A DNA stretch of 59,841 nt, the filler included, from Dugesia japonica (Eukaryota), in the NCBI GenBank assembly GCA_001938525.1. It is 4 parts of 4 records of this genome, joined end to end, with 100 filler letters (N's around TTAATTAATTAA, not from the genome) between each part and the next. Parts side by side here need not be neighbours in the genome. Positions count along the whole stretch, not along the records: positions 27,573 to 36,871 come from MQRL01632415.1; 3 more parts are not named here. One strand, written 5' to 3'. The position numbers were made by a program, and so were the translations under genes. Shown here piece after piece: positions 2,745-57,494 of the stretch; the stretch's first letter is position 1, and each line of letters opens with the position of its first letter. Below the pieces are notes generated by a model. The model ran no database searches, was not told where the DNA came from, and worked only from the letters and a program-made list of their open reading frames with translations.

Positions 2745-2749
2745 GTCTA

Positions 2750-6500: not shown

Positions 6501-7036
6501 CTTTTTCTTCTTTAATTTTATTTTCCTGTAGATGAATTTCTATTGGTCCATGGCATGATTCTGTTACTTCTAAAACCAATAATATTATAGTATTTTTTAT
6601 TTTAAACATATAGTTTTTAATTAAATCTTAAAATTAAATAATAATTTTTTTATTACCTTCTTGAATTGTTAGTAATATTTTAAGTTTGAATACAAACTAA
6701 TTTCTATCAATATTTTCCAGCATTTCTTCTATAATAATGTCCAAATTTATTATTAATAAACGATTACATTAAATTTGTTTATATTTAACATGCACAATAC
6801 ATGATCGCGTCATGCAAGATGCATGTTTGCAATAAAAAAAAATTATTAAAACTGATAATAAAACTTAATAATTAATAAAAACTAACAATAATAACATCTT
6901 ATATTCAACAATATACAATAATTATTAATTATACAATAATATTAATAAAATACAATAATTAATTTTGAATTAATTTATTTTTATAAAATTTTAATTGGTT
7001 AATTTTAATTCTTATTTTAACTTTAATTATTTAATT

Positions 7037-13045: not shown

Positions 13046-15560
13046 TCTTCCCCCTCTAAAATTTTATTTAATCTTTTCCACATTTCTTTCGATCATCTTG
13101 CCTCTGAACTCTTCAGCAGATATATTTTTCATGAATCTTTTTTATCATCTCGAATGGATCTTTCTTTGTATTTTGATCTGCTTTATATTTTGATTAGCAC
13201 CTCGTATCCAACTTTAAAATGTCTTTTTCTTGTGTTCAAGTCTTCAGATTCTTCATTCTTTTCTCTATTATTGAACCATCTTTCTCTATATATCTTCTTA
13301 CCTAATATCAATTTTGCTGGACTTGTCCCCAAAGTATTCTGGCTTGTCGCATTTAGTATATATTTAATTTCTGGTATCACAACTGGCTAATTTTTATTCT
13401 TTTTATCTTTTAATGTTGTATTGATGTAAATTCTGATCGTTCTGAATTGATGTTAATATGATGATAATATGGACTTGAAAAGCAATTCGCTATATTAATT
13501 GAATCTGTCATGTCTTTGAAGGCTTTCGATTTGAAGATCTTCCCACAATGTATCTCTTTTGTGCACTAAATCTCAGTATCTATTTATCCATAATCGTTCT
13601 CTTTATTGATTCCTCATCTTGTTTAACTTTAGCTATTAAGCATATGTGTCTGCTAAATTTATCTATTATTGCACATATATATCCTTTTCTTTCTAAGGTT
13701 TCTTGAAATGGCACACAGATATTAATATAAATGCTCTCAAATGGTTCATTAGCCTTTAATATTATAGTTTTCTACGTTGTTCTAACTGCTGTTACTTTGT
13801 TCATTTGGCACGTTGTGCATTCTTTAATTACTTTTGACACGGTTTTCGCAAATCTTACATAACATATCATTTTTAAAATAGTTTATCACTTTTTCTGTGC
13901 CTGTGTGCATCAATAAATTATGCATTTCTTTTATCATTTGATTTTTTCTTTTCTGATGGAATCAATATTTTGCCGATTTTTGTATTTATTAAATATTCTA
14001 TTAATCGAAACCTTTCAAATATTCAATTTTTTAAATCATTCTTTATCTTTTCAATTTTGTCTACGTTACTTTGCAATTATTATGTATTTGAACTTGATGT
14101 ACAATTAATTGTTCTTGCCTTTATTTTTCCTTTCTTTAAATTCTCATTTTCTTTTAAACATTTAACACACATATCAAAATTCATTCTAGACAGCTTTTCT
14201 GCATTCGGATGTTTCAAAGCTCGCATCTGTATCTAGTACAAACATCTGTTTGATATTAGGAACACTGAATATTGATGCTTTTGTTAATGCATCTTTCATC
14301 TCATTAAAATCTTTATCACAACCTTCAGAACACACAAGTTTTGTACTATTACTTTGACATCGCTCTTCTAAGCTTCTAGCCTTCTTTGAGTAATTATTGA
14401 TAAACCGTCTATAGTAATTGCATATTCCCAAAAAGCTTCTCAAGTTCTTTACACATTTAGGACTTCCAAAATTTTTAATCGCTTCAATTTTTGTTGGATC
14501 GGTTCGAACTTTATTCTTGACTATGATATGTCCTAGAAATTTAACTTTTGCTCGCAATAAATGACATTTTTCTGGATTAATTCTCAATCCTGATTCTTGA
14601 ATTCTTTTAAAAACTTGGTCTAATATTCTGTAGTGCTGCTCTAAATTTTCTGAAAATATCAAAATATCATCCATGTATACCATAGTTCTTCTCAATCTTC
14701 CTAATACTTTTGTCATTAGTTCTTAAAACGTTCCAGCTGCTGCAGCTATACCTAATGGCATTTTTGTGAAACAATACTGTCCATTTTTCGTAGAGAATGC
14801 TGATTTCTCTTGTGAATCTTCATGTAACGGAACTTTATAATATGCATTACCCAAATCAATAATACTAAAATATCTTGCACCACTCAAATTGTCTAGCATT
14901 TCCTCTACATTGGGCATCGGAAATGCCTGTCTTTCTGGTATCGTATCCAGTTTTCAATAATCAAGACACAATCTAACGTCTTTCCTTTCTTTTTTCCAAA
15001 CATATATTAATGGTGTGTTCCATTGCAAATTACACTTCCTAATAATGCTATTGTCAAACAAATTTTTGATAGCTTCATCGATCTTATTTTCTAAATGCAT
15101 TGATTGTCTTCATGGTTTCGTATTTATTGGTTCTCCATTTGTGATTATTTAATGTTCTGCCATTGTTGTTCTGCCGATATCCCAATTGTCTACCATGAAT
15201 ATTCCTTTATGAATCCTTATAACTTCCTCTAAATTCTCATTTGACTTGTTAATCAATATTTTTATTGCTCTCTGTAACTCTCTTTTCAACTGTTGTACTG
15301 CGTCTATACTTTGCTTCTATATTACAAAGATACATTTCGGTATCCTCACATTTAGTCTCTCTCACCAATTGGAATCCAAACTGTTTCTGTAATTATATTC
15401 ATCCAATTAGATTTGGATGTATTTGTTTCACTACAAAGAATTTAACTGTTTCACTTTTATTCTCGAATTTTACTACTACTTTTATTGTACAGATGATTTC
15501 AAGAGGACTATTATTGGCACATCTTAAATTGCATATTCCCAAAAGGCTTCTCTACATTAG
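13046..15560 (-). mobile_element. Ty3/Gypsy LTR retrotransposon pol (RT-RH-IN), decayed
   Basis: WNTPLICI.KK, IIDLGNAYY, MPLGIAAA, VYMDDILIFS, LRSFLGICNYYRRFI, LDTDAS, and integrase remnants (HTGTEK, IDKFSR, IEYILNAT). Confidence 0.95.
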
Positions 15561-15736
15561 GCATCGGAAATGTCTGTCTTTCTGAGATTGTATTAAGTTT
15601 TCTAAAATCTAGACATAATCTAATGTCCTCCTTTTCTTTTCTCAAACACATATTAACGGAGTGTTCCACTGAGAGTTACCCTTCATAATAATGCCATTGT
15701 CAAAGAAATTCTTTAAAGCTTCGTTTCTCTTATTCT
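15560..15736 (-). mobile_element. Second Gypsy RT N-terminal fragment
   Basis: FDNGIIMKGNSQWNTPLICV, paralogous to 14910-15090; cut by a gap. Confidence 0.75.
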
Positions 15737-23872: not shown

Positions 23873-24686
23873 TTAAAACTTGGAATCTTCTGCTTTATAA
23901 TTGTAAACTGCATGTGTTTTGTTTTTCGGATTCTCTGATGATTTCTGAAATTCTTTAAAGATCATTTGTTTTAATTGACTGAATTTCATATCTGGTCTTT
24001 CTTTTCTCAATTCTCCCATTCTTCTTTCTTCAAATGATGTAAATGCAGATTTCATTCGTTTTTCAGCATGTCTTTCAAGTTCATCTTCGGTTCTAATTAT
24101 AAAACATTAAAAGAAATAGTTAATAAATTAAATAATATTATTAAAATTTAATTGATTAATGAACATTAATTAAATAAATTTTTATGTCATCAATAACATA
24201 CTTAAACATGTTGATGGCATCATCAATATTTCTAGCATCACAAATATCAAATTGAAATTTATTTTGTGGGATATCTTCAATATTTTCTTTGATTTTATTA
24301 ATAATGTTATTATTATTAAATATTTGATTTGGTTTTATTTTCATTTTTTCTAATTCATAATGAGTAATTTTGCTGGTAATTTTATTTTTCATATTCATTT
24401 TATTCATTTCACTATCAATTAGATTTTCACGTTCTTTTTTCTTTTCTAGTTGTAGTAATTTTTTCTCATCTTTCTCCTCCTAATTTTAATGAAAATTATT
24501 TAGAATATCATTTGAAAATAAACATTATACTTTTCGTTGAAGTTTTTTATTGGTGGTTTTATCGTAATCTTTCCAATATTCATCTTCAATTTGCTTTTGT
24601 TTAGCGTCTCTTTCGTTTTGTTTTTTTTCATTTTTTCGAGCTTTTGTTTCAACAGCTTTAGTGTTTACTGACATCTTTTTAGGCAT
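23873..24686 (-). CDS. CCDC124: Coiled-coil domain-containing protein 124 (Lso2/CCDC124 ribosome hibernation factor); exons 24686-24531, 24479-24202, 24092-23873
   Basis: MPKKMSVNTKAVETKARK..EDEYWKD; DARNIDDAI; ERHAEKRMKSAF..FEE..SQLKQMIFKEFQKSSENP. GT-AG introns of 51 and 109 nt keep the frame. Confidence 0.95.
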
Positions 24687-27472: not shown

Positions 27473-27572
27473 NNNNNNNNNNNNNNNNNNNNNNNNNNNN
27501 NNNNNNNNNNNNNNNNTTAATTAATTAANNNNNNNNNNNNNNNNNNNNNNNNNNNNNNNNNNNNNNNNNNNN
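27473..27572. other. Artificial contig-join linker (44N + TTAATTAATTAA + 44N)
   Basis: Exactly 100 bp; six-frame stop oligo centred in Ns; three identical occurrences. Confidence 0.95.
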
Positions 27573-28216
27573 TTTTTAAAAATTTTATTTGGTGTTTTTT
27601 TATAGATATAATTTATGTTATTTTAAATACAAAAATAACATGTTATACAAAATATGTTATTTTAAAAAAATTATTTTTTAAACATTTCTATTCTATTATT
27701 TTTTTTTTAAAAAAATTTTAAAAAATTAAATAACAATTAAATAAATTAAAAAATTAAATAAAAATTTAACAATACATTGAGTAATTAAATTAAATAATGA
27801 ATTAAATAATGAATGAAATGAAAATGTAGCATGTAATAATAATAATTATTAAAATCTGCCATCATTCAAAGTAAATTAAAACAGAATTTCTCATAAATCA
27901 AATAATAATTTGATTGACAGAATATAATTTGCATAAATTTACACAAAATAATTTATTTATTAAACGCGTTTGTTTGTTTATATTTCGTCATATTAATGAT
28001 TCATTTCCTATTAAAATTTCCGGTTTCTAACACAATCCAACGAATAATTGAATCAATTTCACCTNNNNNNNNNNNNNNNNNNNNNNNNNNNNNNNNNNNN
28101 NNNNNNNNNNNNNNNNNNNNNNNNNNNNNNNNNNNNNNNNNNAATTAATTAATTAATTAATTAAATTTATTATCTTTAAACATTTACACACTACAACTAA
28201 TAAATAAGTCATTTAC

Positions 28217-28797
28217 TTTATCGTATCTCTCAAATTCATCTCTCTCGCTCTGCGAACAGTTCCTGCCAATAGGAGAAATATTTACCATTCCCGTTCGATA
28301 CTCAACAAATGTTCCTCGTTTGATCGGAAGTCGAATATTTGATAAATATTTCAGTGAATAATTAATGAAATTTTGCAAAGTTTCTTCTCCTAAAACTTCG
28401 ATGATACTCTTTAAAACAATGTAACTTTCGTTAATGAAAATATTTATTTACTGTTTGACTAACAAGTTCCCCAAATCTATGATATAATAAACCATTTTCT
28501 GAAAACACATATTCAATTTTTTTTAAATCTATAAACACTCTTTTGAGAATATTATTGCTATAATTATTACTGTTCATTCCACCAAGTTGTTCTAATATTT
28601 TACTAAAATCTGAACCTCCTAGAACTCCGATTTTAACTTTCTTTTGCAATCTTTCAAGTAAATTAAGCATTTCATTGTTGATTACCTTGTTGAATAATAT
28701 AAATGAAATTTATAATAAGAATTTTATAATTATTTCAAACATTTCTAGGTTTAGTAAGAGTTCCATCAACGTCAAATAAACAAATTGTGGAATCCAT
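28217..28797 (-). CDS. PMM2: Phosphomannomutase (HAD IIB, PMM/Sec53), first four coding exons; 3' exons not visible
   Basis: [76 protein letters not shown] introns of about 42-54 nt. The C-terminal GGQISFDVFP/FGDKT motifs were not found. Confidence 0.95.
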
Positions 28798-29570
28798 CTG
28801 AAAAAAATATTAATTTTTAAGTATTTGAAATAAGCTAATAATTGAATAAGTTTTTATACAGAAAAAATAATTTAAATTTAGATTTAAATAAACCACTTAA
28901 AACATGCAATATTTTAAAACAAATTATTAATAAGTTTAATATACTTGGAATGAAATGATTCTTTTAAACACTTGTTTAGAAATCAAATTTATTTCACAAT
29001 AAAAGTTTCATTTAATTCTTTAAGACTAACATTTTATCATTATTACTATTATTATTATCATTATTATGGGTAAGACAATATATGGTATTCATTTAACTTT
29101 AGACTATTAAAGCCAAGATTTTTCAATTTTTTTGCGGAAAAAGCTTTAATTATACATCAAACAATATTATTTACCTACATGTAAAGATAATATCAGTAGT
29201 ATTCATGTGACTACCGTAAGAGTGTTAAGTAACTAAAATATATTGATATTATGAATGTGAGGAAATAACTAGTAATGAAAATATAAAGATCAATTATCTA
29301 ATATTGATATTAAAATTGTATATAAATTAAATTGTTGAGTTATTGGAAACACACGTTATTAATTATTTTTCCTAGAAGTGTATTTGAGCTTCGGGGTATT
29401 TACGTTTAGTCACGTAAGAGTTTTTATCTATTAAGAGATTTTTTAATTGTAGTTAATTGGGTGTGAATTATTTAAATTATTTACGAATTGTAATTAATAA
29501 ATTGTAAATTATTATTTGTAGAAGGAAAAATACGGCTGAGGAAAAGGCAGCTCTCAAGGGACCCGTTCAA

Positions 29571-29668
29571 GAATTTACCTAACGTCCCTTATTAGGTCTT
29601 CGGTATAGAGCGGTTGACTTCCATCATTTATTTGAAGTACACACTCGTATACCTTTATCTTCGGGTTC
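29571..29668. ncRNA. Conserved structured RNA motif, copy A
   Basis: GAATTT-[ACCTAA/TTAGGT]-CTTC-[GGTATA..TATACC] enclosing GTTG[ACTTC/GAAGT], then GGGTTC. Confidence 0.7.
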
Positions 29669-29735
29669 ATTATCTTATTTACAAAATAAATTAACAACAT
29701 ACTATCATCTATTATTAAGATTTATTTTTATCTAA

Positions 29736-30097
29736 CTACATGTAATCTAGGGCACCAGGGTCTAACCACTGGATAGGCTCTCCAAACATGAAACTAAATG
29801 CTGCTTCGTCGTCGTCGCTATTCCATCGCGTCAATGTCTGTTGCTCAAGGCGGTGAGCTAAATCAGCAATGTACTGCTGAAGGAATTCGATTTTGTGTCT
29901 AACGATTTGTTTGGTGTTTTCCACCAATTCACCTTGTTTTTAATTGATAANATCTAATTTTTTAATTAAATGACTCCTCTAAATTAGATGACGTAACAAT
30001 GCCCACTCATTTTGTCGTTTAAAATTGCGCTTGAGTAGTAATTTCTGAATACATCAATGACAACGACGGAGACTATTAGGTAACAGAATTCTCGGCA
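29736..30097 (-). pseudogene. Cassette A ORF4, unassigned helical protein ending WLDPGALDYM
   Basis: Acceptor TTTTCAG|TG CCG; internal stops; stop followed by AATAAA; homologous to 33677-34048. Confidence 0.75.
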
Positions 30098-30257
30098 CTG
30101 AAAAGAAATAGACAAGTAAAAGTTACTCAAAACCTATCATAGGTATTTCAATTATTCAAATTATTATAAATGAAAGTGTCAGGATGGATATCATTCATTG
30201 ATTATAACTAAAATATTTTATTTCATACATAAACAAGAGCATAACACACTATGGCCG

Positions 30258-30607
30258 TTAAGTTTGAGTCGACTTATCCACCATCAATGGTTCAAGTTGC
30301 ATGCGTGTTCTCAATTCTAAGACATCTGCGACCAGTTTATTTTCACGGTCATGGAGGGACTGGACGATCTCAGCAAAAGACTCTAGTTGGCTTTTCCAGA
30401 GTCGCTCTTGCGAATGAGAAGCCTCGGCTTCCTTGCGAAACGCGATACATTTGTTATTGTAGCGTTTTACCTTGCTCTCGGCAGCAGCTGTGTCGTCTTC
30501 CCATCGGCGTTTATCTAACTGATATAAGTTCCAAGTCATAGAGATTTCATCGCTTCTTTCTCTCATCTTCTTCGTTGGTACAACAGAGCGACTTAGAGAA
30601 GAATGCA
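30258..30607 (-). CDS. Cassette A ORF3, unassigned coiled-coil protein ending VDKSTQT
   Basis: Acceptor TTTTCTAG|TG CAT; open 116 codons; homologous to 34160-34480. Confidence 0.7.
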
Positions 30608-30763
30608 CTAGAAAAGTAAAATAAACTCAATGACCTCGGAATTTTACATACCAAGCGTTTTACTTGTATTTAAGAAAGGATAAGTTATTTTAACGATTAT
30701 CTAAAGTAAGCAATTTAATGAATCGACACAAAACAGTAAAATAATAATACAATGAGACTTTTA

Positions 30764-31165
30764 TTATAAACTACATAAAGGACGCCTTAACTTATTCTCT
30801 GAGCCTCTTTTTCGGTCCAATATATTATCGATAAACTCTCCCAGTCCAGAGAAAGATGGCAAGTGTGAAGTAGATATCAGAACTACAGACGGACCCTTAC
30901 GCCACTCTCTTACTGTATACAAATCGCCATTACTATCTGGAGAGGTAATTGTATCAGCATGATACACCTCACGAGCTTGATTGTGACAGCACCAATCATA
31001 ATAGGCCTGACGCTCAGTGGCGTCCCAGTGCTTTTCATCATTCTCTTCCTCGGTGATTAGATTGGATCGATCTACAAGACTAACAGCGTCTCTATTGTAT
31101 GGGTTCTTGTATCGCTTGAAAATAGTTCGGCATGTCTTGCCGTTCAGTAATAGCTCCCACTTCCA
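30764..31165 (-). CDS. Cassette A ORF2, unassigned ~133-aa protein
   Basis: Acceptor TTTTCAG|TGG; open frame; N-terminus KW......RTIFKRYK shared with copy B; AATAAA overlaps the stop. Confidence 0.6.
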   Translation of the reverse strand, partial: WKWELLLNGKTCRTIFKRYKNPYNRDAVSLVDRSNLITEEENDEKHWDATERQAYYDWCCHNQAREVYHADTITSPDSNGDLYTVREWRKGPSVVLISTSHLPSFSGLGEFIDNILDRKRGSENKLRRPLCSL

Positions 31166-31252
31166 CTGAAAATTCAAATTAGTATAGATTATTAAGGTCG
31201 AAAAAAGTAAAACATATTAAAAAAGGATTGAGAGTAATTTTATTTAAACCTA

Positions 31253-31485
31253 TTAAACACTAGGATTAGATGAATGTATTGACGTATCTGAATCCAAATC
31301 AACGATGTGTTTCAAAAGGAACATCTCGAAAAAGTGCTGTAAATCGAATTCATCGGGGTGTTCAATTTATCCTTGTGATAGGATATGGGCTTATAATTGC
31401 TACAGACGGGCTTTACGTCTTTCTTTTCGAATTCCTCTTAAATTGTTCATCAGAATATCGGGCATGGTGGTGGGAAGTTGAAACC
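31253..31485 (-). pseudogene. Cassette A ORF1, unassigned protein
   Basis: MPDIL..RL*QL*AHILSQG*IEHPDEFDLQHF aligns with copy B RLRQLITHFLTRGKIEHPD*TDLQCFAEMF. Confidence 0.7.
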
Positions 31486-32012
31486 CTGAATAATAATTTC
31501 TTGGATAAATGAAATTATTGACTGCCTATACCAAATGTTTAAGACCCTATTTATCATAAATAAACTGACATCAACACCAATATTAACAAAACAATGATAA
31601 AGGTAACTGCAATGATACAAGCACCAATGGGAATAGTAGCAGTAATATTAATGGTCTGATTTGTAAAATTATTGATGAAAATATTAGAGCAATTAATCGT
31701 ACTACTAAATAAGGACTTTAATAATGATCAAAACAGTAACGAAATTAATGACGGAGAAGCTATAAAGATACTAATAATATAGTAATAAAGATGGTACTAA
31801 AAAAAGCAATGGAATTATTAGCAATAGTGATAATAATCATAATGTAATAAAGATAATATTAATAGAAATTAATGGAAGTACTAATAAAAATAATAATGAT
31901 ATTGTTGGGGTTTTACCCTAGGTGGGTTGATTTCTTATATGATTAAATCTGGAGGGGTTGAACTTTATATAAAATTAAGTCTAGGGTAATTGAACAGGTA
32001 AAACCCCGCGAT

Positions 32013-32110
32013 GAATTTGAATCTGGTATCCCCCAAAAAATCCAGATCTTCGGAATGAAGCCGTTGACTAGTAACTTGAGTACACACTCGCACTCCTTTG
32101 GTTCGGGTTN
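32013..32110. ncRNA. Conserved structured RNA motif, copy C
   Basis: GAATTT-[ATCTGG/CCAGAT]-CTTC-[GGAATG/CACTCC]..GTTG[ACT/AGT]..GGGTT. Confidence 0.7.
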
Positions 32111-32575
32111 GTTTTACATGATACTCGCTCGATTTACTTATCACAATTAGCCTTTACAATTATTCACTTATAATTTTCCGTTTTGTGGGGTGTTTCTTAA
32201 TTCGGTCACTCTATATTTGATTATAATCTTAAAAGCTATATTATCAATTCGGAAAAACAAAAGAATTTGTAAGTGAAAAATATATTATATGATTTAAATT
32301 TCACTTGGTGTACAATAACCTAACAATTAGCATAATTAAAAAAACTAACGTAACCTGGATCCCGATCCGGAGTAAGCACAAGAGCATAACATCCATTCCA
32401 TTCGTGTTCAATAGTGACTCCCGAGCTACTCCGTAATAATAAGTCATAGCAATCCAGTCGGAAATCGTTGCATCATCAATCGAATCGCATAAATAATCAC
32501 CTTTTGTGTTAATTTCGTTTTAATTTCCGTATTTCCTTGATAAAAAGTGTATATGTTTTGTGAAAATTACACCGG

Positions 32576-32716
32576 TATTTATACCAGTTTCTTTTCACAC
32601 CCCCATTCCTTTCATTGGTTATTTGAAATCGTACGATTTTTCTGACGCTTTCATTGGCTTGAACGTCACGTGAGTTCTTTTTATTGGTAGTTATTTTAAG
32701 ATTCCAAAATTATTGG
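32576..32716 (-). promoter_or_regulatory. Pol II promoter: four CCAAT boxes + E-box + TATA
   Basis: ATTGG at 32614, 32653, 32683 and 32712; TCACGTGA; TATAAATA (-) at 32583-32576. Confidence 0.6.
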
Positions 32717-33499
32717 TCAATCTTCAAAACCTTATAGCTTTTTTCTGGATCTTGCTACGACTTTCTAACCATTATTTTTGAATTCTCCGATTTTTCTTGA
32801 CCAGAATCTTTTTAATTGTTAATTTTATTCACCATAGGAAGTTGCCTTTTTTTCCATATTTCACAAAATATTTAATTTTCTTTTAAAATTATATTGTTTT
32901 AATTTGTTCGATTTATTTTATTTAAATAAATAAATTATTTATTTTATTTTATTCCAAAATTTTAATTCGATGTCCATTTATTTGTTTTCTGATCCGAAAT
33001 TAATTTAATTCTGCTGTTTTCTTTCACTAATTAATTCATTTAATTTATTTTCTGTAAGTTGATTATTTCCTTTGACTTTCTTTCTTTTATTTATTGAATT
33101 ATTTTCTTCCGTTTTTTTCTCTTCCAACATTTTTTTTCTTCTTTCGTAACTCACTAGGTTACGGATCATTTCCCATATTTAGTTCCTTTATTTCGGTTTT
33201 TCTTCAATTATTCCTTTCGGTAACTGGTCTAGCTCCTTCATTTGTCTGTGTTCTTCGTTTTTTTTGTGACATCCTTTCAAATTTCAGGTGTACCTAATCG
33301 CTGGTTTATTTTCCATTCTCAAGTGTTTGACCCCAACAATATTATAAATACAAAATCAATGGAATTACTAACTAAATAATAAAAGTAATACTGATAATAG
33401 TAAGTATCATAATAATAATATTAATAGTGTTGGGGTTCCACCTGAGTTGGGTGAAGGGAGCGTGGCTGGGGAAAAACAGCCCTCAGGGAACCCTTTCAA

Positions 33500-33599
33500 G
33501 AATTTAACCTAACGCCACTAAGTTAGGACTTCAACGTATAGCGGTTGACCTCTTGCTTCATGGGAGGTGCCCACCCATGCGCTTTTTGGATTTGGATTC
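33500..33599. ncRNA. Conserved structured RNA motif, copy B
   Basis: GAATTT-[CCTAAC/GTTAGG]-CTTC-[AACGTA/TGCGCT]..GTTG[ACCTC/GAGGT]..GGATTC. Confidence 0.7.
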
Positions 33600-33676
33600 A
33601 TTATTTTTACCCATTAATCTGAAGTTATTAAATGTTAGAATGAGCCAAACATGGTAACCTTTATTTTATATAATAG

Positions 33677-34048
33677 CTACATAAGATCCAATGCACCCGG
33701 GTCAAACCACTGGGCCGGATCTGTTGTTGAAAAATTGAAAGATGCGGAATCATCATTGGATCCAAGTGGGATTACCGAGTTGGCGTGAGAGGTCCGAGAT
33801 ATACTGCTTCAGGAAATCGATTTTCCGCTGTTTTAGTAATCTGGTTTCTTCTTCCAGAGTTTTGGTTTGGATTGCCAACTCACTCTGTTTCCTAACCACT
33901 AGATTTAGTTTCTTTATTAATTCATTCCTTTGGTCAAGGTGCTTAAGTAGAGCACTGTCGGCCTTTCGCTTAAAATGTCTCTCTATGAAAAGACGGCGCA
34001 TGATTCGATGGCATCGACGTAAATTTTCAGGAAAGGTGATTCGAGGCA
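33677..34048 (-). pseudogene. Cassette B ORF4 (ends WFDPGALDLM after one frameshift)
   Basis: TTTTAG|TG CCT; PRI..P..LRRCH; KIDFLKQYISDL; stop followed by AATAAA. Confidence 0.75.
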
Positions 34049-34159
34049 CTAAAATAAATTACATTAGTAACTAGGTAACAAAAGTTGTGAAACACTACAG
34101 CAATAACTACATTCATGAGAATGATTAAATAATATTTTTATTCAAGAAAACGTGGGTTG

Positions 34160-34554
34160 TCATGTCCGTGAGGTTTGAGGGCTTTTCTCGATCATTAACG
34201 GCTCGAGAGGTATCTTCTTCTTGAGGCTTAAGACATCCCCAACCAGGTTATTTTCTCGGCCATGGCTAGACCGGATAATTTCCGCGAAAGACTCAACTTG
34301 TTTCTTCCGCGCCCGTTCCTGTGTTTGGGAGGCTTCGGCGTCCTTTTTGTACATTACACACTTTTCCGGTATCGAAGCACTTTACTATTCGCCGTGGCTA
34401 TCTCTGCCTTCCAGCAACGCTTTGCAAGGTGATAGACGTCCCAAGTTATTTTTTGGTCCTCACTGGTATCTCTCATCTTTTTTATCGTTTTATATCTCTT
34501 AAACACGGTGCGTCCGGAATTAATATCGATACTCCCTTCCCATTTATATTCCAT
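34160..34554 (-). pseudogene. Cassette B fused ORF2/ORF3
   Basis: MEYKW..RTVFKRYK joined directly to KKMR..ESFAEII..LEPLMIEKSPQT; one frameshift. Confidence 0.75.
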
Positions 34555-34657
34555 CTATAAAAATAAACATATTTAACATGATATTTACAAAATTGTTTCA
34601 ATAACAAAGAAATAAGACATAAGATTTATTCTGCACCAGCTAATATAACACGTAATT

Positions 34658-34847
34658 CTACTTATTATTCTTCATCCAAGTCTAGTTTATTGTCGTGTTG
34701 AAACATCTCGGCGAAACATTGGAGATCGGTTTAGTCCGGGTGTTCAATTTTACCACGAGTCAAAAAATGGGTTATCAGCTGTCTTAAACGAGTGGTCTGG
34801 CGTTGCTTCTTTATCAATCTCAGGGCATTTCGCAACCTTCTCGGCAT
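34658..34847 (-). pseudogene. Cassette B ORF1
   Basis: MPRRLRNALRLIKKQRQTTRLRQLITHFLTRGKIEHPD*TDLQCFAEMF..DLDEENNK*, then AATAAA. Confidence 0.7.
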
Positions 34848-36502
34848 TAGCTAAGGAAAAATAACTAGTTATAGATAGTAAATTCATGGGTTAGTTCTCC
34901 TGAATTATTTAACGGGGAATTATTAGTAATAATGACACTCCTTGTTTGGACATGCGGGGGGCCATAATTGAGAGGTGCAACCTGGTTAGTATGCCATCCG
35001 ACCCATGAGTATGTAATAATGGGGTGGAGTAATAACTCGAAAGAGGAAAAATGGGGTTATTGATAATATGATTCAACCGTTTATATATATTAATCAAGAT
35101 AATCGTGCCAGTATGCTCAGTAGTACTGACGGGAATCGTAACGTTAACTACGAAATTCTCATCATATAGATAATACTAATAATACCAATAATCAGGTTGA
35201 TGATAATAATGATAATAGTAATAACAACAATAATAATAATACAATAAGAATAATAATACTAAGAGTAATAATAATAATGATACCATTACCAAAGTTAATA
35301 ATAGTATTAGCAATAATATTCATAATAATAATAAATTGAATATTACTAACAAAATAGAACTAATCTTATAAGTCGATCCTAGTGACAATGATAACAACTA
35401 AATGCGATAAAATCATTAACTATAGTAGTTGGGACGAGAATCGGGGTGTGAAATAATAAATAGACTCTGGCAACAATGATGCCAGTTAGCGTCGCGCAAC
35501 TCAGGTAAATGAGATCGACATTCATTAAGGACAAATATCTGGAGTAACAATAATTCTACTGCTGGTAAATATCCCATATGACTAATCTTGTGTAAATATG
35601 TAGAAATAACCCAATATACCGCTTCTCAANNNNNNNNNNNNNNNNNNNNNNNNNNNNNNNNNNNNNGTATTTTTGATTTAGAATACTTCCACTTTTGACT
35701 CCAATTACTACTAACGAGGTCAAGTAAAGGAATCTATGAGTAGTACTAAGAATGTTTGTGATTAGTGTGCTGAGCATATTAATCTCATCATAACAAATTA
35801 GATACAACACAAAAATTTGATTGGCATTATTAGTCGTTGAATCATGGGATAGTGAAAATGAGCATTGCGCAGGCCACATACACATACAGAACTGTTAACT
35901 GTAACAGCCCGAGTTGTCAATATCAAAAAATTGATTATATCACTTCTCAACGATTTCTATCTAGAGGTGATTTGAACTAGTTCTGGTTTAGTTACAGAGT
36001 GTAATAAAAAGGAGGCAGTCATTACCAACAAATGTCACTCAACTTATATCAGTCATCTGAAATTGTTAAATGATAATTAACAAAATTTTAAAAGTTATAT
36101 TTCAATATACATTTCCATATTTATTGAACGAAATTATTGAACAAAAAGAAAAAATATTTTTACTTTTCGTGAAATGAATTAATTGATTGACGATTCTGCA
36201 ACGAGATGAGTATCTAACAATAATTCTCGATTATCAAATTTTTCTTCCCTGATTCTGATTTCCTGAGTTTTCTTTCGTTCAGCTGCGGCTACAATTATTT
36301 TTTCTTTTACTATAAAATGAATAATCGATGAAAAACTCTTTTACAAACAATTATCCGTTTACGTAGTAGTTTCAAATTTTTTGGGATACCTGATAGTAAT
36401 TAGCAGACGATATTTTTCCACAAATTTGACTGTATCCTGAACACTAGTTAATGAGTAAAAAAGTGACATGAATTGCTTAAAATCAGGGGGGTTTAAATAT
36501 CG

Positions 36503-36693
36503 TTTTATAAGACACCCTGACCTGTTCGGCATTGGCTACTTATTTTTAGTTTAAGCCTTCCGTTCTTGATTGGTTTTGGTGCCAATTTTCTGTAATTTTT
36601 TCAGAGTTTTAGAACTCTAATTGGCAGTTATTTTTAAAACCTCATGTGATCGATGGTGCTTTGTCTTATTTTTATTTTCTGAATCCTTATTGG
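36503..36693 (-). promoter_or_regulatory. Second CCAAT-array + TATA promoter
   Basis: ATTGG at 36531, 36569, 36620 and 36689; TATAAAA (-) at 36509-36503; a decayed ORF starts ~36468 (-). Confidence 0.45.
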
Positions 36694-36871
36694 CCAAATC
36701 CTTGGATCCAGGTAGCACCCTTCTGAGTGAAGGTATGATTTTTCAATTATAAAATTTAGATGCGCTGCCCTTCATTCTTGTTGAATTTTTTCTCGCTGAA
36801 CTCCTGTGATTTCCTGGAGCCAAGTTATTCTCATGAAATGAATTGCGGCCTAATTTTAATTTATTTTAACC

Positions 36872-36971
36872 NNNNNNNNNNNNNNNNNNNNNNNNNNNNN
36901 NNNNNNNNNNNNNNNTTAATTAATTAANNNNNNNNNNNNNNNNNNNNNNNNNNNNNNNNNNNNNNNNNNNN
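36872..36971. other. Artificial contig-join linker
   Basis: 44N-TTAATTAATTAA-44N. Confidence 0.95.
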
Positions 36972-36974
36972 TAA

Positions 36975-37030
<56 letters not shown>

Positions 37031-38560: not shown

Positions 38561-39119
38561 TTATTTATATATATTTAATTACTAAATGTTGAAGTCATAC
38601 TTGTACATCTAATAAAAAAATAAACTACTTGATTTTTTGTAATTCTTTGGGAATTCATTAGAAATTCAAACAAATTTAACTGTGAAGTAATTTGACTGTA
38701 AAGTTTGAATTCATAAAAATATATGTATTAAGGCTATAATTAATTAACAAATTAATCAAATAATTTAAATAATATATGTGTGTGTATTTATATTTGTATG
38801 GATTTCATTAAATTACATGATTCGTTCAATATTTTTTATGTTTTGATCAAACTTTTTAATTTAATGAAATCTCAAATACGATCAATGGTTAAGTCCAATA
38901 CTTATTTTCGCAATAATTGTAATTTGAAAAATATGTATTGATATTTATATTTGTGTCCCATAATTCTTTTCTTAAACTATTCGATAAGATAATTAATGTT
39001 CCATTTTATGTAATAATAAGAATTGAAATTACTATGCGTATCATAATTTAACCTATGCTATGTCAATTTAATTCTGTATAATCAACCTAATAACTTTAAT
39101 TTTAAAAATATTTATTTAG

Positions 39120-39579
39120 ATTTTGAAAACTCTATTGATAATATGACTACTTCTACAAATGGTGTTTTCATTGGAAAAGCCCTAACCAGCGCTAGAGTTT
39201 TATTCAACAGTGATACAAGAACAAACGCCACAAAAACTGTGATAATAATTATTGATAGTGAAATTACAGATAGAAATGTGACATTTAAAGAGGCCGAACT
39301 TTTGAAAAAATCAGGAATCAAAGTGTTTACAATTGGTTTAACAGGAAAGACCTCTGAGTAAATTGTTTCATTCTGTTTATTATCAATTGTCAAATGTTCC
39401 ATTTTTATACAGTTCAGATTTGAAATTGGTTGCCTCGCCTGATAAAGCATTATTCGTTGACAACTTCAGCAATTTACAAAAGTATAACGCCTATATATCA
39501 TCTGAGTTATGTGATGGTAAGAATTTTAGTAATTATAGATTATATATTAAAAACGAAAATAAAATTAAAATGCTATTAA

Positions 39580-39646
<67 letters not shown>

Positions 39647-39709
39647 NNNNNNNNNNNNNNNNNNNNNNNNNNNNNNNNNNNNNNNNNNNNNNNNNNNNNN
39701 NNNNNNNNN

Positions 39710-39775
<66 letters not shown>

Positions 39776-42700
39776 CAGTAGTAATGTTATAACTGGTGTT
39801 TATATTAACATTTTAATTTAGTTATTCGTGGAACAAATAAAGAATGCAGTTCTAAACAGTTAGACATTATGTTTGCTCTTGATTCCTCTAGTAGTCTTGG
39901 TGAAACAGAATGGCAATATGAAGTAGAATTTGTAGAAAGAATAGTAAGAGATATGGACATTAGTGAAGGTTTNACTAGAGTAGGCGTAGTAACATTCAAC
40001 ACTTTAGCAAAAAAAGAATTTGGACTGGAACAATATTATGATAAATACGGTAAATAGTTGGTTGTAAATGGTAATAGCATAATTTTCACAAACTGTATTC
40101 CCATTTTAATTTCCCATTTAGATTATACCATTAATTATGGAAATTTATTTTCTGAGAAAATATTGATGTCAAATATTAATAATTATTCTCATAAATAAAA
40201 AATCGAATATAAATTCTTTAAACTACAGCCATATTTATTTGCCTGTAAAACTATATACAGGCGTCACTCGTATAACACAGTTAATTCGTACCATGTTATA
40301 CAAAACTTTTTATTTAATTATTTAAACTAAGATATAATAAAGAATAATATAATTTAAACTTAGATATAACATAAATCAACGCAATGTGTGCCGTGTTGTA
40401 TCGAAACCTTGCTTTGTGTTATATCGAAACCGTCTTATAATAAACATTAAAATAATATAAATCAGGTCAATGTGTACCGTATTATATCGACATTAAGTCT
40501 TAAGGTGTAAAATTTTATGATAGCCGAAATTTTGTTCCAAATATGTATATAAAAAGTAAGTTAACTTTAACAAGTTTTGATTTTAAAAAATATGAAATTC
40601 AACATTATGATGAAATACAAAAATGAAAAATACAACAAAAAACGTGTACAATTTACATGAATAACCTCTTATTTCAACCAACAGCTTATTACGATCCCGA
40701 AAATTATTTTTTATCATCTCTCTCATCAAATATTAAAACTGATCTATTTTTTCCTCAAAGTTGGTTGAAACTCCTCTTCACTAGTTATTTCTCCATTATT
40801 ACAAAAGTTATCTGACGTAGTTTCAATTATCAATCTGTTTCAATTTTACGATTCGGTTAAAATTTCTCTATAAAAAGCTAAAGAACTTTGCAATTCTGCT
40901 TTAAATTTTCCGCTACGTACTACTGAAGGATATTTTTCAACGAAAAGATTTTCTTTTTTTTTAGCTAAAGCAATTCTTTTTTGCAGATCAATTAAATTTA
41001 AATGATGAACCAATATAATTGTTACAAATGTTTTTCAAATCATCGGCGTAGTGGATGTATTTACTAGTTCAATTAGTTCTTCCTCATTCAAAGTTTGTTC
41101 TTCAAAAGGTTCACGAACATTATCATCATATTTGACAATCAGTTCCCTTCGAAATTAGAAGCAACCAATTTTATTCTGTTATATTCTGCTTTTTCAAATG
41201 AGGCAAAGTTTTCTTTCTTGACCATTTTTGGGTAACAAAGATTTCCAGCACACATGAAATGTAGACTTTTTTAATTCATTGCAAGTCAAAGCTATAATTG
41301 CAACACCATCTAAAATAGAAAACTCTTTCCAAGCTTGAGTAAGCGTTACATTTTTATCGTTTTCTCGTCTTTCGAAAATTTTTCGGCATACTAGTATGAT
41401 GTAGTATACCTTCAGTGTTTCAATGATCTTTTGATCTCATGGTGGGAAGAATGATGTACAATTTGGTGGATTAAACATAATTTTTACATTAGGATGATTC
41501 AACTCTTTACTGTGGCTACCTGCGTTATCAATGAGAAATAAAACTTTAAAGCTGAAATGTTTTTTCTTCCAAAACGTTTTTACTTCTGGAATAAAACAAT
41601 TTTTAAACCAGTCTTCAAACAAATTTGCATCATCCAGCATTTTTTTATTTGCTTGCCAGAAGACTGGTAGATGATACTTAGGTTTTTCATTGCTCTGTAC
41701 AATTTATTATCATTGGTTTTACTACAAAATTTTCCGATAGGTTACTACACATGTGAAGAGTAACAAGATCTTTGTTGAGCTTATAACCTAGTTCGTGCTT
41801 CTCAATTTTTGAAATAAAAGTTTAAGACGACAGCTTCTTCCAGTATAAAGCTGTTTAATTGGCTTTGAAATTTGATCTGTAAAATATTCTCCATCTTCCA
41901 TAGTTTATGGGCAGCCTCTACATCTGCTGAAGCTTGCTCTCTTTGAAATTTTAAATTCCGCCAAGAAAATTCATCTTTCTTTAAATGTGTGTAAATCCAG
42001 AGTGCTTTTTGTTTGATAATATTCGTACTCAAAGAGATTTTTTTATCTTATAAATCTTCTACCCATATCATAAGAGCCTGTTCTATGTTTACGATATTTA
42101 TATCTCGTTTGCGGAAAGACGCTTCGCCCTTTGCGAACAACCACCGGCAACATATTTCTAATTTCTCTTTCATTTTATAATATAGTTCGAAATAGTAGCT
42201 TCATTAAAACTTAATGATTTTGCAATCGATGAACTCTTTTCTCCAAATTTGATGCGATCTAAAATTTTGATTTCTTCTTCAAATGAAATAAATTTTGCTT
42301 CTTGATCTTGTTAGAGATTATCTAAATTTAGTGTTAAAAATTAGATTTTTTATAAATGTTACAACTTAATTTATTATTGATTAATTTTTTATCGAACGCA
42401 ATTGAAAGATAATCCCATGGAATACATATTCCATTTCTTGAAATCATGTTACATTAATCTGAAGTCTTATACCGTGTAATATTGAAACCGTGTTATGCGA
42501 GGGACACCTGTATTCCATATTCTAGTAATATTGATGTTAAGTCTAAAGGTATAATAAAGTTTGTTATGATTTCGTTTAATTTCGGTCTATTTTTGATAGA
42601 TTATTTGTTTTGTCATTATAAATTGTTTTTAATAAATTTCTGTACAATCTGAGAATAAAGTTGTAAAGATTTTCTTTTACATATTTTAGTTATTTATTTC

Positions 42701-44164
42701 ACAGTTACGTTAATAGTTACTCTGTGGTATTTTAATTATACAAAAATTTCAGTTAAATCTATTTGAATTCACATTAAAAACGTGAGTGGATACCGATTTA
42801 CTAATATATCAAATTAGGGATATATGAAGGGTAGAGCAATGGGGCCTGCACATTTTGGGCTCACTTATGCTTCTATTAATCAAGTAAGCGTGATGAATTA
42901 CCCAGATCAATTTCATTACAATACCGGTTTCATAATTATTTACAAATATTCTTCTCTATTTTTCCCTAACAATAAAGTAATTCCCCGAATTAAATCCTTT
43001 TCCTAACGTTTTTTGAATGTTGTTTCAGCAATAACCGAGAAGAAAAAATGTTATTTTATTTTTATTTTAAATTTTTATATTTATTTTAGTTATTTTAGTT
43101 CTTTTATTTTTTCCCTAACTAAATAACTAAATGGATTCTTAATAAAATATTTTTAAAAAGAAAAAAAATTATATACTTTTGACTTTTTGTACATATAATT
43201 CATCAAATTTTAGGGATCCCATGGTGGCATATTCCCTCCTAACGCCACTGTATTTTGATACTTTCAATTTATAAATTTAATTAGATAATATTTTGTATTA
43301 TTTTTTTGTTATACTATTCTAATTGCAACATCAATAATTTTAGCATTAATATCCGCGGTGAAGAAAATACCTTTTGATGAAGGAACAACAGATATTGGTG
43401 AAGCCTTGAGGGAATGTAAATGGGAATTAATGAACAGCACAAGGAGAGAAGCTCCTAAAGTTATTATATTAGTTACAGATGGTGTATCAACTGGAAGCGT
43501 GTCCCCTGAAATTGAAAGTGTTATCATTAAAAAACAAGGAATAAAAATAATAGTTATTGGAATTGGCGATTCGATATCTCCGTAATTATTGTTTCCTTAT
43601 TTTACAAATATATTTTAATTTATTGTTTTATAATTTAAGCTCTCAACTGAAAAGTCTTTCTACTTCTGGTACGTTTTATAGAGTTTTGGATTTCAAAACA
43701 ATCAAAGACTACGATACAACCTTTATAACTCGGGAAAGTTGCAAAAGTAATATGATATAACAAGTTTTTTTACGAGAGGTGTCAAACACCTTTTGTGTTT
43801 TTCTGGCCCGTGAATCATAATAAAATTTGATGTAAAGGTATAAGTATATATTAGCATTAAAACAGTTTGTTAAATCTTCGAAAATATAATAATATCTAAA
43901 TTTTTTATTTAGCATATGAGTAAATTTCTGTTATTACAGAATTATTAGCGGTAATGAATTAATAATGTATTTTTACAATTCTAAATAATTTTTATTATTG
44001 GCCCGTGAAATTTTCAGAAAATTATTTTTTTGCACACGCCTTCAAAATGTTTGACACCTCTGATTTATACTAATTATTTTAATTAACTAATTTATTTATT
44101 GATAATTTATTGAGTAATTATTACATTGATTTACGTAATAATTTCAGTTGGAAAGAAATCATAA
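39120..44164 (+). CDS. Tandem von Willebrand factor A (VWA) domain protein (matrilin/collagen-VI-like), 5' exons missing; exons 39120-39357, 39413-39516, 39822-40049, 43344-43581, 43640-43746, 44148-44164
   Basis: DIMFALDSSSSLG (MIDAS DxSxS), TRVGVVTF, GTTDIGEAL, PKVIILVTDG, GIKVFTIG; phase-consistent GT-AG introns. Confidence 0.88.
39581..39775. repeat. (ATT)n microsatellite spanning a gap, intronic
   Basis: Direct reading. Confidence 0.9.
40258..42510 (-). mobile_element. Full-length Tigger/pogo DNA transposon (transposase pseudogene) in a VWA intron
   Basis: TIRs CAGGYGTCMCTCGYATAACAC with TA TSD; LFLIDNAGSH, PPNCTS..DQ, ASADVEAA. Confidence 0.92.
43774..44062. mobile_element. hAT-type MITE in the last VWA intron
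   Basis: TIR (C/G)AGAGGTGTCAAAC; internal GGCCCGTGA; imperfect 8-bp flanks TTTTTTAC/ATTTATAC. Confidence 0.75.
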
Positions 44165-45489: not shown

Positions 45490-47190
45490 CAGGCATATTA
45501 TATGAAGGTTTTCGTTTAAAACTGCAGGCCATATTGCAACCGTAAAGCTTCTTCTAATCTGGATATCCGGTCATCATATACATTAAGTCTTTTCTGCCAG
45601 TCTTTTGGTACTGACCGATACTTATCTTGTTCCACATGTGTCATTAATTGGTTTTCATTTAAAATATCAGGCGTTTCTATTGTTTCCTCTTCCTTTGTTA
45701 CGTGTAACATACACAACTTGTTTGATCTTTCTATTATTATAGCTAAGTCTTCACTACTTGCTTTAAATCNNNNNNNNNNNNNNNNNNNNNNNNNNNNNNN
45801 NNNNNNNNNNNNNTTAATTAATTAANNNNNNNNNNNNNNNNNNNNNNNNNNNNNNNNNNNNNNNNNNNNTACTGGTAGTTCTATCAACCTTTTACTTAGC
45901 TTGTAAAAATATTCTTTATTTTCATCTGTCCACTGAACTTTGTTTTCTTTCTTTAACATCGAACTGAGAGGTTCTGATAAATTTGCATAATTTTTTATGA
46001 ATCGCCTATAATAAATACAAAACCCTAAAAATGTTTGAAGTTCTTTTCAACATTGAGGAGTATCCCATTTTTGGATTGCCATTATCTTATCAGGATCTGT
46101 TGTGATTCCATTTTTAGTTATTATATGTCCGAGATATTGTATTTTTTCCTGTAAAAATTTACATTTATTTGGTGCTAATTTAAGTCCACCTTCTCTTATT
46201 CTTTTTAATATTCGATCCAGTCTTTCATTGTGCTCTTCTACTGTTTTACCGAATATTAAAACACCGTCTAAATATATTGCACACTTATTCCTATTTTCAT
46301 TTCGCAATACAATATTCATAAGCCGCTAAAATGTCGCTGGTGATGAGCATAATCCAAACGGCATTCTGGCAAATTCGTCTTATTCAAACGTTGTGCTAAA
46401 TGCAGATATTTCCTGATCTTGTTTAGCTATCGGCACTTGGTGATATCCACTCGAAAGGTCTAGAGTAGAAAAATAGTTAGCTCCAGCAATACTGTCAAAT
46501 ATTTCCCCTAATAATCGTATCAGAAATATTGGTCGGTTTGTTTTAGAATTCAGTACACTGCATTCAATACACATACGGTTATCACCGTTTTTATTTTTCA
46601 CCACTGCAGTTGAAAGTTTCCACGGTTTACAACATCTGCATCTACCAAATCTTTTACCATATATTCTACTTCTTCTTTAAGTCCTTTTGATATTCTCCGT
46701 TGTTTGAAAGCAGTTGGTCTGCCATCGGTTGTTTCTATTTTATGTTCAGTCTTTGCGGCTTTGCCCACATCCATCTTATTTCGACTAAATACATCTTTAT
46801 TTCTTTCAAGTATTGCTAATGTTTTGACTATATCATAGTAATTGTTTGCAGCTTTCATATCATTCCTAATTGTCTGCAGTATATTGTCTGTAATTTCTTC
46901 TTCTGTTCTTTGTTTCTCAGTGGACAATTGTCTGAGTGATAATTTTTCAAACACTTCTTCATTTTGCTTAAACTCTTCTAAATATCCGAGTGTAGTTCCG
47001 GTGTGTAAAGTTTACATCTTCATTCTAACATATATACTCTTACCTACATGTATCAATTATTATCGATTGTAATTACATCTGTCAATAAATGTTTCCGCAC
47101 GGCCATTTTCTCTTTATCTCCAGTGAAAATTCATTCTTTTCTCGTGTCATAAGTAATTTTCTGATCTGAGTGGTCCATTTTCATGCCTCT
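45490..47190 (-). mobile_element. Gypsy gag/pol fragments (spanning a linker)
   Basis: [68 protein letters not shown]. Confidence 0.9.
45770..45869. other. Artificial contig-join linker
   Basis: 44N-TTAATTAATTAA-44N. Confidence 0.95.
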
Positions 47191-47196
47191 GCTAAA

Positions 47197-47800
47197 CTAT
47201 TCACCAATTCCACTTACATCTACGTTTTCAAATACCGGAATTCTATAACATTGATTATCATTATAAATTTCATGAGTCTCTGTTTTCCCGAATCCCGTAT
47301 TACAGCTCATTAACACGGTCGGTGTTAGTTTTTTATAGCCTTTAAAGAAAAAAAGGATTCCGCCAGAGGAAGATACAAGAAATTGGTATAGTTCAAAGTA
47401 CATCAAGTCAAAAACATTTTTGCTAAAGATCGGCGATTTGAGCCAAGTTAATCAACGATCAAATGAAAGGTGTAAGAATTTTGCTATTAGAGTGAATAAG
47501 TTTGTAAGAGAAGTTTCAAAGACATCTATTTCAATATGTTGTAGAATAAATTTCTGCCAATTCAAAATCAATTGCAATCGAAAGTGTTTCCAATTCTGCA
47601 TTCAAATTGAGAAATTTTGATGGAGTTTTTGATATGCTTGTTCGGTTCTTTCAGATAGTAAAACCAACACTGCAGAAAAAATTTCAATCGTGTATGGTAC
47701 AAAGTTGAAGTGTTTTTGTCCTCATACTATTTTTTCCGAACCATTTTGTCATCATACCATTTTGTTTGTACTATTTTGCAAGAAGAGTATATAATAGAGC
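47197..47800 (-). mobile_element. MULE (Mutator-like) transposase fragment
   Basis: IAIDFELAE motif; 47516-47615 is near-identical to 54563-54663. Confidence 0.6.
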
Positions 47801-51560: not shown

Positions 51561-51809
51561 GTTCTATTCCTTCTTGTGTTATTATTTGTATGAGGAAAAA
51601 ATGCTATTCGCAAAATATATTCTTTTAATTCGTTTTTAAGATGTTATAATGAAAATCNGTACATACATGTGATTTTAAATAATATAGTTTAAATTAGTGT
51701 TGAATACTTTAATAAATTAAACTGTCAAACAAAAAATCGATTTCAATAAAGCGAAAGGTTTGTTCAGTGTCATAGCAGTCATATCACACAACATTTATGT
51801 TCATATCTC

Positions 51810-57201: not shown

Positions 57202-57494
57202 AATAGGGGTTTCACCTATACAGCTCAGTTTTAAGTTATGCCTAGGGTAATGCATATAGTGAAACTCAGCGATGAATTTAATTTGGAGTCCACATTCTAG
57301 ATCTTCAGAATAGAGTTGTTGACTCTCAACCCGTAGTTCGAGTGCATGCTCATATTCCTTTGGTTTGGATTCTTACTGTTCTAATACTCACTTTGGTCCT
57401 CATTAACTAATTGCGTGAATTACTTTTACAATCTGATATTGGTCGACAACCTCGCCATCTTTATTATCATCTCGTTAATCGTTTGAAGATTCCT
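57202..57494. mobile_element. Terminus of LTR-like family copy D, including the RNA motif (57274-57372)
   Basis: GGGGTTTCAC..GTGAAACT hairpin, then GCGATGAATTT..CTTC..GTTGACTC..GAGT..CCTTTGGTTTGGATTC; closest to copy C; cut by a gap. Confidence 0.75.

Follow-up and report, generated by a model that had tools for sequence, protein, structure and literature searches.

We analysed a window of 59,841 nucleotides from the planarian Dugesia japonica (assembly GCA_001938525.1), which is ~75% AT and holds short introns and many transposon fragments. The window consists of four parts, a TTAATTAATTAA linker lies between N runs at 27473-27572, 36872-36971 and 45770-45869, and the order across these runs is uncertain. 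The part at positions 27,573 to 36,871 (MQRL01632415.1) carries, on the minus strand, two copies (A and B) of a cassette of short frames, each preceded by an acceptor-like AG and followed by an AATAAA signal, together with a solo-LTR-like element located between the two copies.

The cassette locus adjoins the host gene for phosphomannomutase (PMM; 28150-28797, minus strand), identified by its Pfam match. RNA reads from two runs confirmed three introns of 42-55 nt in this gene. In addition, 20 reads of a single run begin, at the first PMM acceptor, with a foreign sequence. It matches nowhere in the window with up to seven mismatches allowed and has ATG at its end once the acceptor G is included. 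Since a foreign leader absent from the window sits on a PMM acceptor, the host performs spliced-leader (SL) trans-splicing. We take this sequence to be the planarian spliced leader, and a search for it in the printed literature returned no match. The Macrostomum leader likewise ends in ATG (PMC8629364).

Other features in the window include a three-exon host gene (23880-24684, minus strand), presumably CCDC124-like, whose middle exon has no Pfam match, and the VWA-domain exons of a host gene (39047-43585, plus strand; Pfam), interspersed with decayed DNA-transposon-like sequence. An integrase-core fragment (49125-51563, minus strand; Pfam), with two further frames nearby, is in our guess a possible Polinton-like remnant. 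Decayed gypsy-type pol fragments lie on the minus strand at 13100-15700 and 45870-47200, with reverse transcriptase matches at 14186-14722 and 46047-46676; neither is contiguous with the cassette, and no gag-pol linked to the cassette was found in the window. An Rfam scan of positions 28000-37000 yielded no match.

Organization of the two cassette copies

Copy A comprises four modules on the minus strand. ORF1 (31253..31485) follows the acceptor AG before 31485 and is followed by AATAAA at 31244; its main frame is in phase 1, which is uninformative because its own ATG (31465) sits 20 nt past the AG. ORF2 (30764..31165) has 133 open codons in phase 0 without a Met, and its AATAAA (30765) overlaps the stop codon. 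ORF3 (30258..30607; AATAAA 30222) is open over 115 codons in phase 1; its first Met is at codon 14 and its sequence is coiled-coil-like. ORF4 (29736..30097; AATAAA 29726) is in phase 1 without an early Met. A previous sequence-only reading had placed a row of four ORFs here, each starting directly after a T/C-rich AG, and this holds at four of four starts; its statements that ORF1, ORF3 and ORF4 are in phase 1 and that three exons start with AG|TG agree with the copy A sequence, the three being ORF2, ORF3 and ORF4. ORF1 and ORF4 are not open reading frames, however, as each has three internal stops and ORF4 also contains one N, leaving only ORF2 (133 codons) and ORF3 (115 codons) open in this copy. 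Upstream of copy A ORF1 is an ATT-rich, low-complexity stretch (31555..31902, minus strand) that would translate to hydrophobic residues; copy B has a similar stretch at ~35170-35400.

In copy B, also on the minus strand, ORF1 (34627..34850; AATAAA 34630) has its own ATG at 34847 and is decayed. The next module (34160..34554; AATAAA 34142) begins with AG|ATG, and ~21 codons resembling the start of ORF2 continue directly into ORF3, with one frameshift. ORF4 (33677..34048; AATAAA 33665) has 97 open codons in phase 1 before a frameshift. Thus, the proposal that copy B keeps the order and signals of copy A was correct in that every module retains an acceptor and an AATAAA, whereas it missed that only three modules remain, with ORF2 and ORF3 fused. 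Stops or frameshifts interrupt ORF1, ORF3 and ORF4 of copy B. To judge from these lesions, copies A and B are both pseudogenes, a point missed earlier, and the description of the locus as four ORFs overstates it because ORF1 and ORF4 of copy A contain three internal stops. A donor-like GT occurs at a matching position inside ORF4 of both copies (29932 in A and 33883 in B, minus strand).

Two further candidate modules, each known from a single copy, lie upstream in copy B on the minus strand. The first (36125..36309) follows an acceptor ranked in the top 1.6% and is open in phase 1 for 42 codons; its stop is at 36181-36179 and its AATAAA at 36125. The second (35340..36056) opens with AG|ATG (36056) and continues as a long frame, decayed and rich in Cys and hydrophobic residues, that spans a 36-N gap and contains four stops in 185 codons, as compared with 15 and 12 in the other frames. 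An imperfect inverted repeat at 36132-36180 (80% over 50 nt) covers a donor-like site upstream in this copy.

Coding history and putative processing signals of the frames

A comparison of the two copies revealed amino-acid identities of 57% for ORF1 (49 codons), 56% for ORF3 (102 codons) and 52% for ORF4 (91 codons), with ORF2 comparable over only ~19-21 codons. Over 253 usable codons, the pN/pS between A and B was 0.33 (bootstrap 0.27-0.40), whereas the sequence-only reading had named a dN/dS near 1 as refuting its proposal. The mismatches at codon positions 1, 2 and 3 numbered 101, 61 and 175 over 261 aligned codons, with synonymous sites saturated. The other two minus-strand frames gave pN/pS values above 1, and the antisense mirror frame gave a low value (0.16), as expected. 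As the codon blocks had been picked by tblastx, which favours low pN, we also counted a block found by blastn, in which the mismatches at positions 1, 2 and 3 were 6, 6 and 22 (p 5e-4). Among 40 of the 1,273 differences from other copies that were listed, nine fall within coding parts (a further one located in a stop codon and two that precede an ATG were excluded), and all nine are at position 1 or 2; we read these as private decay at family-conserved sites, which alone would be no proof of selection. The substitution patterns between A and B indicate that the cassette frames were once protein-coding and under purifying selection.

We scored the acceptors with a simple, purpose-made score against all 2,672 minus-strand AGs in the window. 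The four in copy A rank in the top 15.7%, 8.7%, 0.6% and 0.04%, and the three in copy B in the top 1.1%, 2.3% and 5.5% (Fisher p 3e-5 and 1e-3, respectively); these p values are optimistic because the ORF ends were chosen post hoc, and the ends of ORF3 and ORF4 are backed independently by the A/B homology. As a control, the PMM trans-splice acceptor ranks in the top 0.6% and the three PMM cis acceptors at just 18-61%, which shows the score to be crude.

The AATAAA signals begin 9, -1, 36 and 10 nt downstream of the stops of copy A ORF1 to ORF4, and ~32-35, 18 and 12 nt downstream of those of copy B. All seven modules therefore have, as had been proposed, an AATAAA within 45 nt past the stop, as compared with 0.19 per minus-strand stop in general and 16 of the 72 minus-strand frames of at least 60 codons. 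The spacers are 74-85% AT, in line with their earlier description as AT-rich, and the distance from AATAAA to the next AG is 76-158 nt. None of the three A/B spacer pairs aligned better than shuffled sequences, yet every spacer, although diverged, keeps its AATAAA and AG.

These observations bear on the explanation that the locus is an ordinary multi-exon gene, or that its motifs arose by chance. The window is ~75% AT, 19% of stops have an AATAAA within 45 nt, and ORF4 of both copies shares a donor-like GT. Nonetheless, the signal follows seven of seven modules, the conservation of ORF3 and ORF4 reaches up to their stops, and, among the top 30 donors, none common to both copies precedes those stops. 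We consider this explanation very improbable; the sequence-only reading had likewise argued against an ordinary gene.

The protein, structure and contig searches gave no homologue of the cassette proteins. In Pfam, the cassette frames gave only weak coiled-coil-type or other sub-cutoff matches, the former including ORF3, and no gag, pol or env family matched, as had been expected from the sequence. The start of ORF2 looks WW-like, without Pfam support. Word-seeded protein searches with ORF3, ORF2 and copy B ORF4, the last against longer proteins only, found no homologue; a full phmmer search with ORF3 and ORF4 against 1.84 billion proteins gave no match; neither ORF2 nor the long copy B frame matched PDB sequences; searches of metagenome and viral contigs gave no match; and a run index lookup listed no RNA holders. 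Planarian repeats are probably absent from the protein, structure and contig collections searched. Atlas comparisons gave a best value of 0.88 for ORF2 and 0.92 for ORF3, the latter to generic coiled-coil clusters with low recognition, and serve as leads only. The predicted ORF2 fold is meaningless (pLDDT 38), and the open part of copy B ORF4 is predicted to form one long helix. Oligomerising or scaffold roles are our likeliest guess. Paralogy among the ORFs was rejected, as 13 of 13 non-matching pairs scored at chance.

An LTR-like element and its putative promoter

The solo-LTR-like element (1,436 bp; 31903..33338, minus strand) has TGTTGGGG...CCCCAACA ends, a 9-bp terminal inverted repeat and ATAT on either side, a 4-bp flank that may match by chance in AT-rich DNA. 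It contains four CCAAT boxes (32716-32618) and TATAAA (32583), with no AATAAA behind the TATA box. A frame of 72 open codons with a hydrophobic end (32304-32519, minus strand) lies behind the TATA box and has no credible Pfam match. The Metaviridae LTR end pattern described in PMC3601003 fits these ends.

Both cassette copies end in DNA of the same kind. The 200 nt behind ORF4 are alike in A and B, and both resemble the 3′ end of the solo LTR. In copy B, the U5-like end (33428..33660, minus strand) terminates, ~250 nt behind ORF4, in the CCCCAACA that it shares with the neighbouring solo LTR; it is 79% identical to the U5-like end of copy A over 90 nt and more weakly similar to the solo LTR end, still above all shuffles. 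In copy A, the U5-like end (29520..29700, minus strand) is non-coding and lacks the terminal motif, and DNA contigs of other copies link this stretch to the terminus seen in B. The TG...CA ends and short inverted repeat are thus both present in the solo LTR, at the 3′ end only in B, and not in A. A fifth ORF behind ORF4 was rejected, as the A/B alignment there contains single-base gaps, and these gaps suggest that the stretch is a cis element rather than a gene. A further U5-like end (57230-57370, minus strand), 67% identical to the solo LTR end, is followed by an ATT-rich stretch. ATT-rich DNA lies behind three of three intact-looking LTR ends in the window, which might reflect a target preference or a part of the element. 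A tandem arrangement of short-LTR units found no support.

Upstream of copy B is a promoter-like region (36389..36700, minus strand) with four CCAAT boxes (36693-36535) and TATAAA at 36509, ~1.65 kb upstream of copy B ORF1. Past the TATA box, an ATG (36469) and then a donor-like GT (36389) mark a candidate leader exon, which ends in phase 2 here. Windows with at least three CCAAT boxes occur in four places on the minus strand; two of them, the solo LTR and the region upstream of B, have four CCAAT boxes followed by TATAAA, and the similarity between these two promoters is weak (p 0.017). This promoter, like the candidate modules upstream, escaped the sequence-only reading. The last AATAAA of copy B lies ~240 nt from the LTR-type end, as placed by motifs only. 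Copy B thus reads as promoter, cassette and LTR end in order, with its 5′ end (the TG start and target duplication) falling in a gap.

The cassette is repeated DNA. The word depth in DNA reads, which does not equal copy number, reached 223,000 in the solo LTR as compared with 11-20 in flanking bins, and reached 1,300-7,700 in the ORF bins, with 34-261 in those of copy A ORF1 and ORF2. The locus is no assembly artefact, because contigs of single-copy depth show only 5-11 differences from it in 270-390 bases. ORF3, spacer and ORF4 stay linked in a contig that has diverged further (24 differences in 255 bases), and other DNA contigs include deletion variants of the cassette. The earlier proposal that the cassette sits inside an LTR-like element is supported by the repeated DNA and the LTR features.

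Two other parent elements would account for part of these observations. Under one, which we regard as unlikely, the cassette would be the 3′ accessory region of an env-bearing retroelement, B would be an internally deleted element instead of one long LTR, and the genes would be expressed from spliced subgenomic RNAs. The long, decayed, Cys-rich and hydrophobic frame upstream of copy B ORF1 fits an order of env followed by accessory genes, the DNA contigs include several cassette deletion variants, and dugesiid Burro elements have env homology and accessory ORFs (PMC6431247). However, there is no U5-like copy behind the copy B promoter (11 of 12 comparisons were at chance and one gave p 0.01) and no CCAAT cluster ahead of the terminal U5, so that two LTRs are not seen in B; moreover, searches of Pfam and PDB with the long frame gave no match. 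Under the other, which we regard as quite unlikely, a host or viral gene cluster would have been captured either by a DNA transposon of the Ginger type or by an element that is not autonomous. Orphan genes bearing host-like signals might be captures, and TG...CA ends with a 4-bp AT-rich duplication fit Ginger2 as well (PMC2836005), but the terminal inverted repeat of 9 bp compares with 40-270 bp in Ginger (PMC2836005), a transposase is absent, and no relatives were found across the collections searched.

A predicted expression mechanism and its relation to known systems

We put at about even odds the reading that the locus holds decayed genes in a repeated element, likely a Ty3/gypsy-type LTR, and that these genes probably served as alternative last exons. 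A single promoter and a short leader exon would feed all the frames, the leader exon is predicted to splice to a different AG in each transcript, and each transcript is predicted to end at the AATAAA right behind its own gene. In full-length RNA, the inner poly(A) signals would have to be leaky or suppressed by an upstream donor, because such RNA must read through them; suppression of a poly(A) signal by an upstream donor is a principle known from retroviruses. Splicing, cleavage, leader identity and parent element are all inferred here. That the whole multi-gene unit lies within an LTR, where one promoter and leader would serve four to six orphan genes with a separate poly(A) site for each, is a tentative extension.

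In the RNA data, sense reads over ORF3 reached a depth of 6.07 versus 0.22 in one oligo-dT run, in the same orientation as PMM. They stem from other copies, since at one listed site none of the 16 reads agrees with the window. No junction to a cassette AG was found among the 15 of 91 joints that were listed, with a raw-read depth of 0-2 in the acceptor bins.

The reading frames bear on the two mechanisms originally put forward, a shared cis-spliced leader and an operon resolved by trans-splicing. ORF1 of both copies, copy B ORF2 and copy A ORF3 have their own Met. By contrast, the A/B similarity of ORF4 sets in directly behind the AG, with the first codon, and in either copy in phase 1, and its first Met lies at codon 103 in A and codon 16 in B, with none shared. 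Its start must therefore lie in an upstream coding exon. The ORF4 start would be accounted for by a cis-spliced exon that is coding and has a phase-1 end, for which reason we favour a shared cis leader.

In the operon explanation, a single transcript would be cut at each AATAAA and the host SL added at each AG. The host trans-splices, as shown by the 20 PMM reads with a foreign leader; the 76-158 nt between AATAAA and AG resemble the Macrostomum intergenic peak near 100 bp (PMC8629364); cis and trans splicing often share flatworm acceptors (PMC12582326); and a leader AUG would be in frame (phase 0) with copy B ORF1, copy B ORF2 and copy A ORF2, the last of which lacks a Met. However, an AUG-ending leader sets phase 0, whereas ORF4 needs phase 1 in both copies. 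The leader AUG would open a wrong frame, unconserved at ORF4, of 4, 37, 21 and 11 codons at copy A ORF3, copy A ORF4, copy B ORF4 and copy A ORF1, respectively, so that ORF4 in A and B starts with neither its own AUG nor that of a leader. Furthermore, a cis donor upstream outcompetes the leader (PMC4558846) and B has a donor-like site, and no cassette leader end was found among the 24 of 1,879 loose ends that were listed, at an acceptor-bin depth of 0-2. We therefore assign the operon a minor share of the probability; the shared cis leader is the better fit, and the operon clashes with the phase of ORF4. A mixed system of cis and SL splicing is possible, because flatworm acceptors often accept both kinds (PMC12582326).

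Several observations also stand against the favoured cis leader. The candidate leader exon in B ends in phase 2 rather than phase 1, and the phase-0 frame of copy A ORF2, which lacks a Met, could not be started by a phase-1 leader. The phase of copy A ORF2 may reflect decay, as its start differs from that of B by a short indel. The weak resemblance between the promoters of B and the solo LTR, the lack of a linked gag-pol in the window and the donor-like GT shared inside ORF4 likewise speak against this reading. Against placing the unit in an LTR, the span from the promoter to the last AATAAA is ~2.8 kb, far longer than published R regions of 10-150 bp (PMC3601003). Animal Metaviridae LTRs share the TG...CA ends, the short inverted repeat, the TATA-like box and, close to the 3′ end, an AATAAA with T-rich DNA behind it (PMC3601003). 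Here, by contrast, several AATAAA signals and coding frames lie within the ~2.8 kb between TATA and the end.

The nearest described system is that of the Burro/GYPSM1 elements, giant Ty3/gypsy elements likely from the same host family. These LTR elements are likewise present in high copy number and have accessory ORFs, Smc-like coiled-coil regions and tandem repeats, and decayed copies are reported in D. japonica (PMC6431247). They differ in that the extra domains lie inside a polyprotein of 4,900-5,100 aa, with an accessory ORF upstream of it, and the description of them in PMC6431247 mentions no row of separately signalled LTR ORFs. The MATH, BIR, BCL2 and ankyrin domains of the giant Burro gag-env-pol polyprotein were not found in 14 cassette, LTR and upstream frames scanned, the internal region being outside the window.

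The predicted working mode of the cassette, splicing included, resembles the adenovirus major late unit, which has one promoter and leader with several acceptors and several poly(A) sites; adenovirus is an unrelated DNA virus with no sequence relationship. HIV nef and MMTV sag are examples of accessory genes that lie next to the 3′ LTR or within it. Accessory RNAs of complex retroviruses use the single LTR poly(A) site, whereas every frame here has its own poly(A) signal. In other respects, complex retroviruses (for example, the foamy-like fish ERVs in PMC6431247) are similar, with small orphan genes near the LTR and spliced RNAs. Flatworm operons resolved by SL addition share the same-strand genes ~100 bp apart and the trans-splicing host (PMC8629364, PMC12582326), but they consist of host genes, and the ORF4 phase misfits an AUG-ending leader.

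Retroelement accessory genes are known; the layout seen here is real and was once under selection, and the processing design, as predicted, would be unusual. No description of a serial acceptor and poly(A) design in an LTR was found in a search of the openly available literature, Repbase and the first Burro publication excluded; the latter may already show LTR ORFs in its figures or supplements. If the predicted design is true, each solo LTR would amount to an expression cassette for several genes that is complete in itself, comparable to the adenovirus arrangement but housed in a retrotransposon. This raises the question of how full-length RNA passes through four or more internal poly(A) signals, and would offer a natural test of cis versus SL splicing at shared acceptors in a trans-splicing animal. 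It would also add four orphan proteins with signs of past selection to a lineage, the planarians, in which transposon control governs stem-cell differentiation (PMC8532177).
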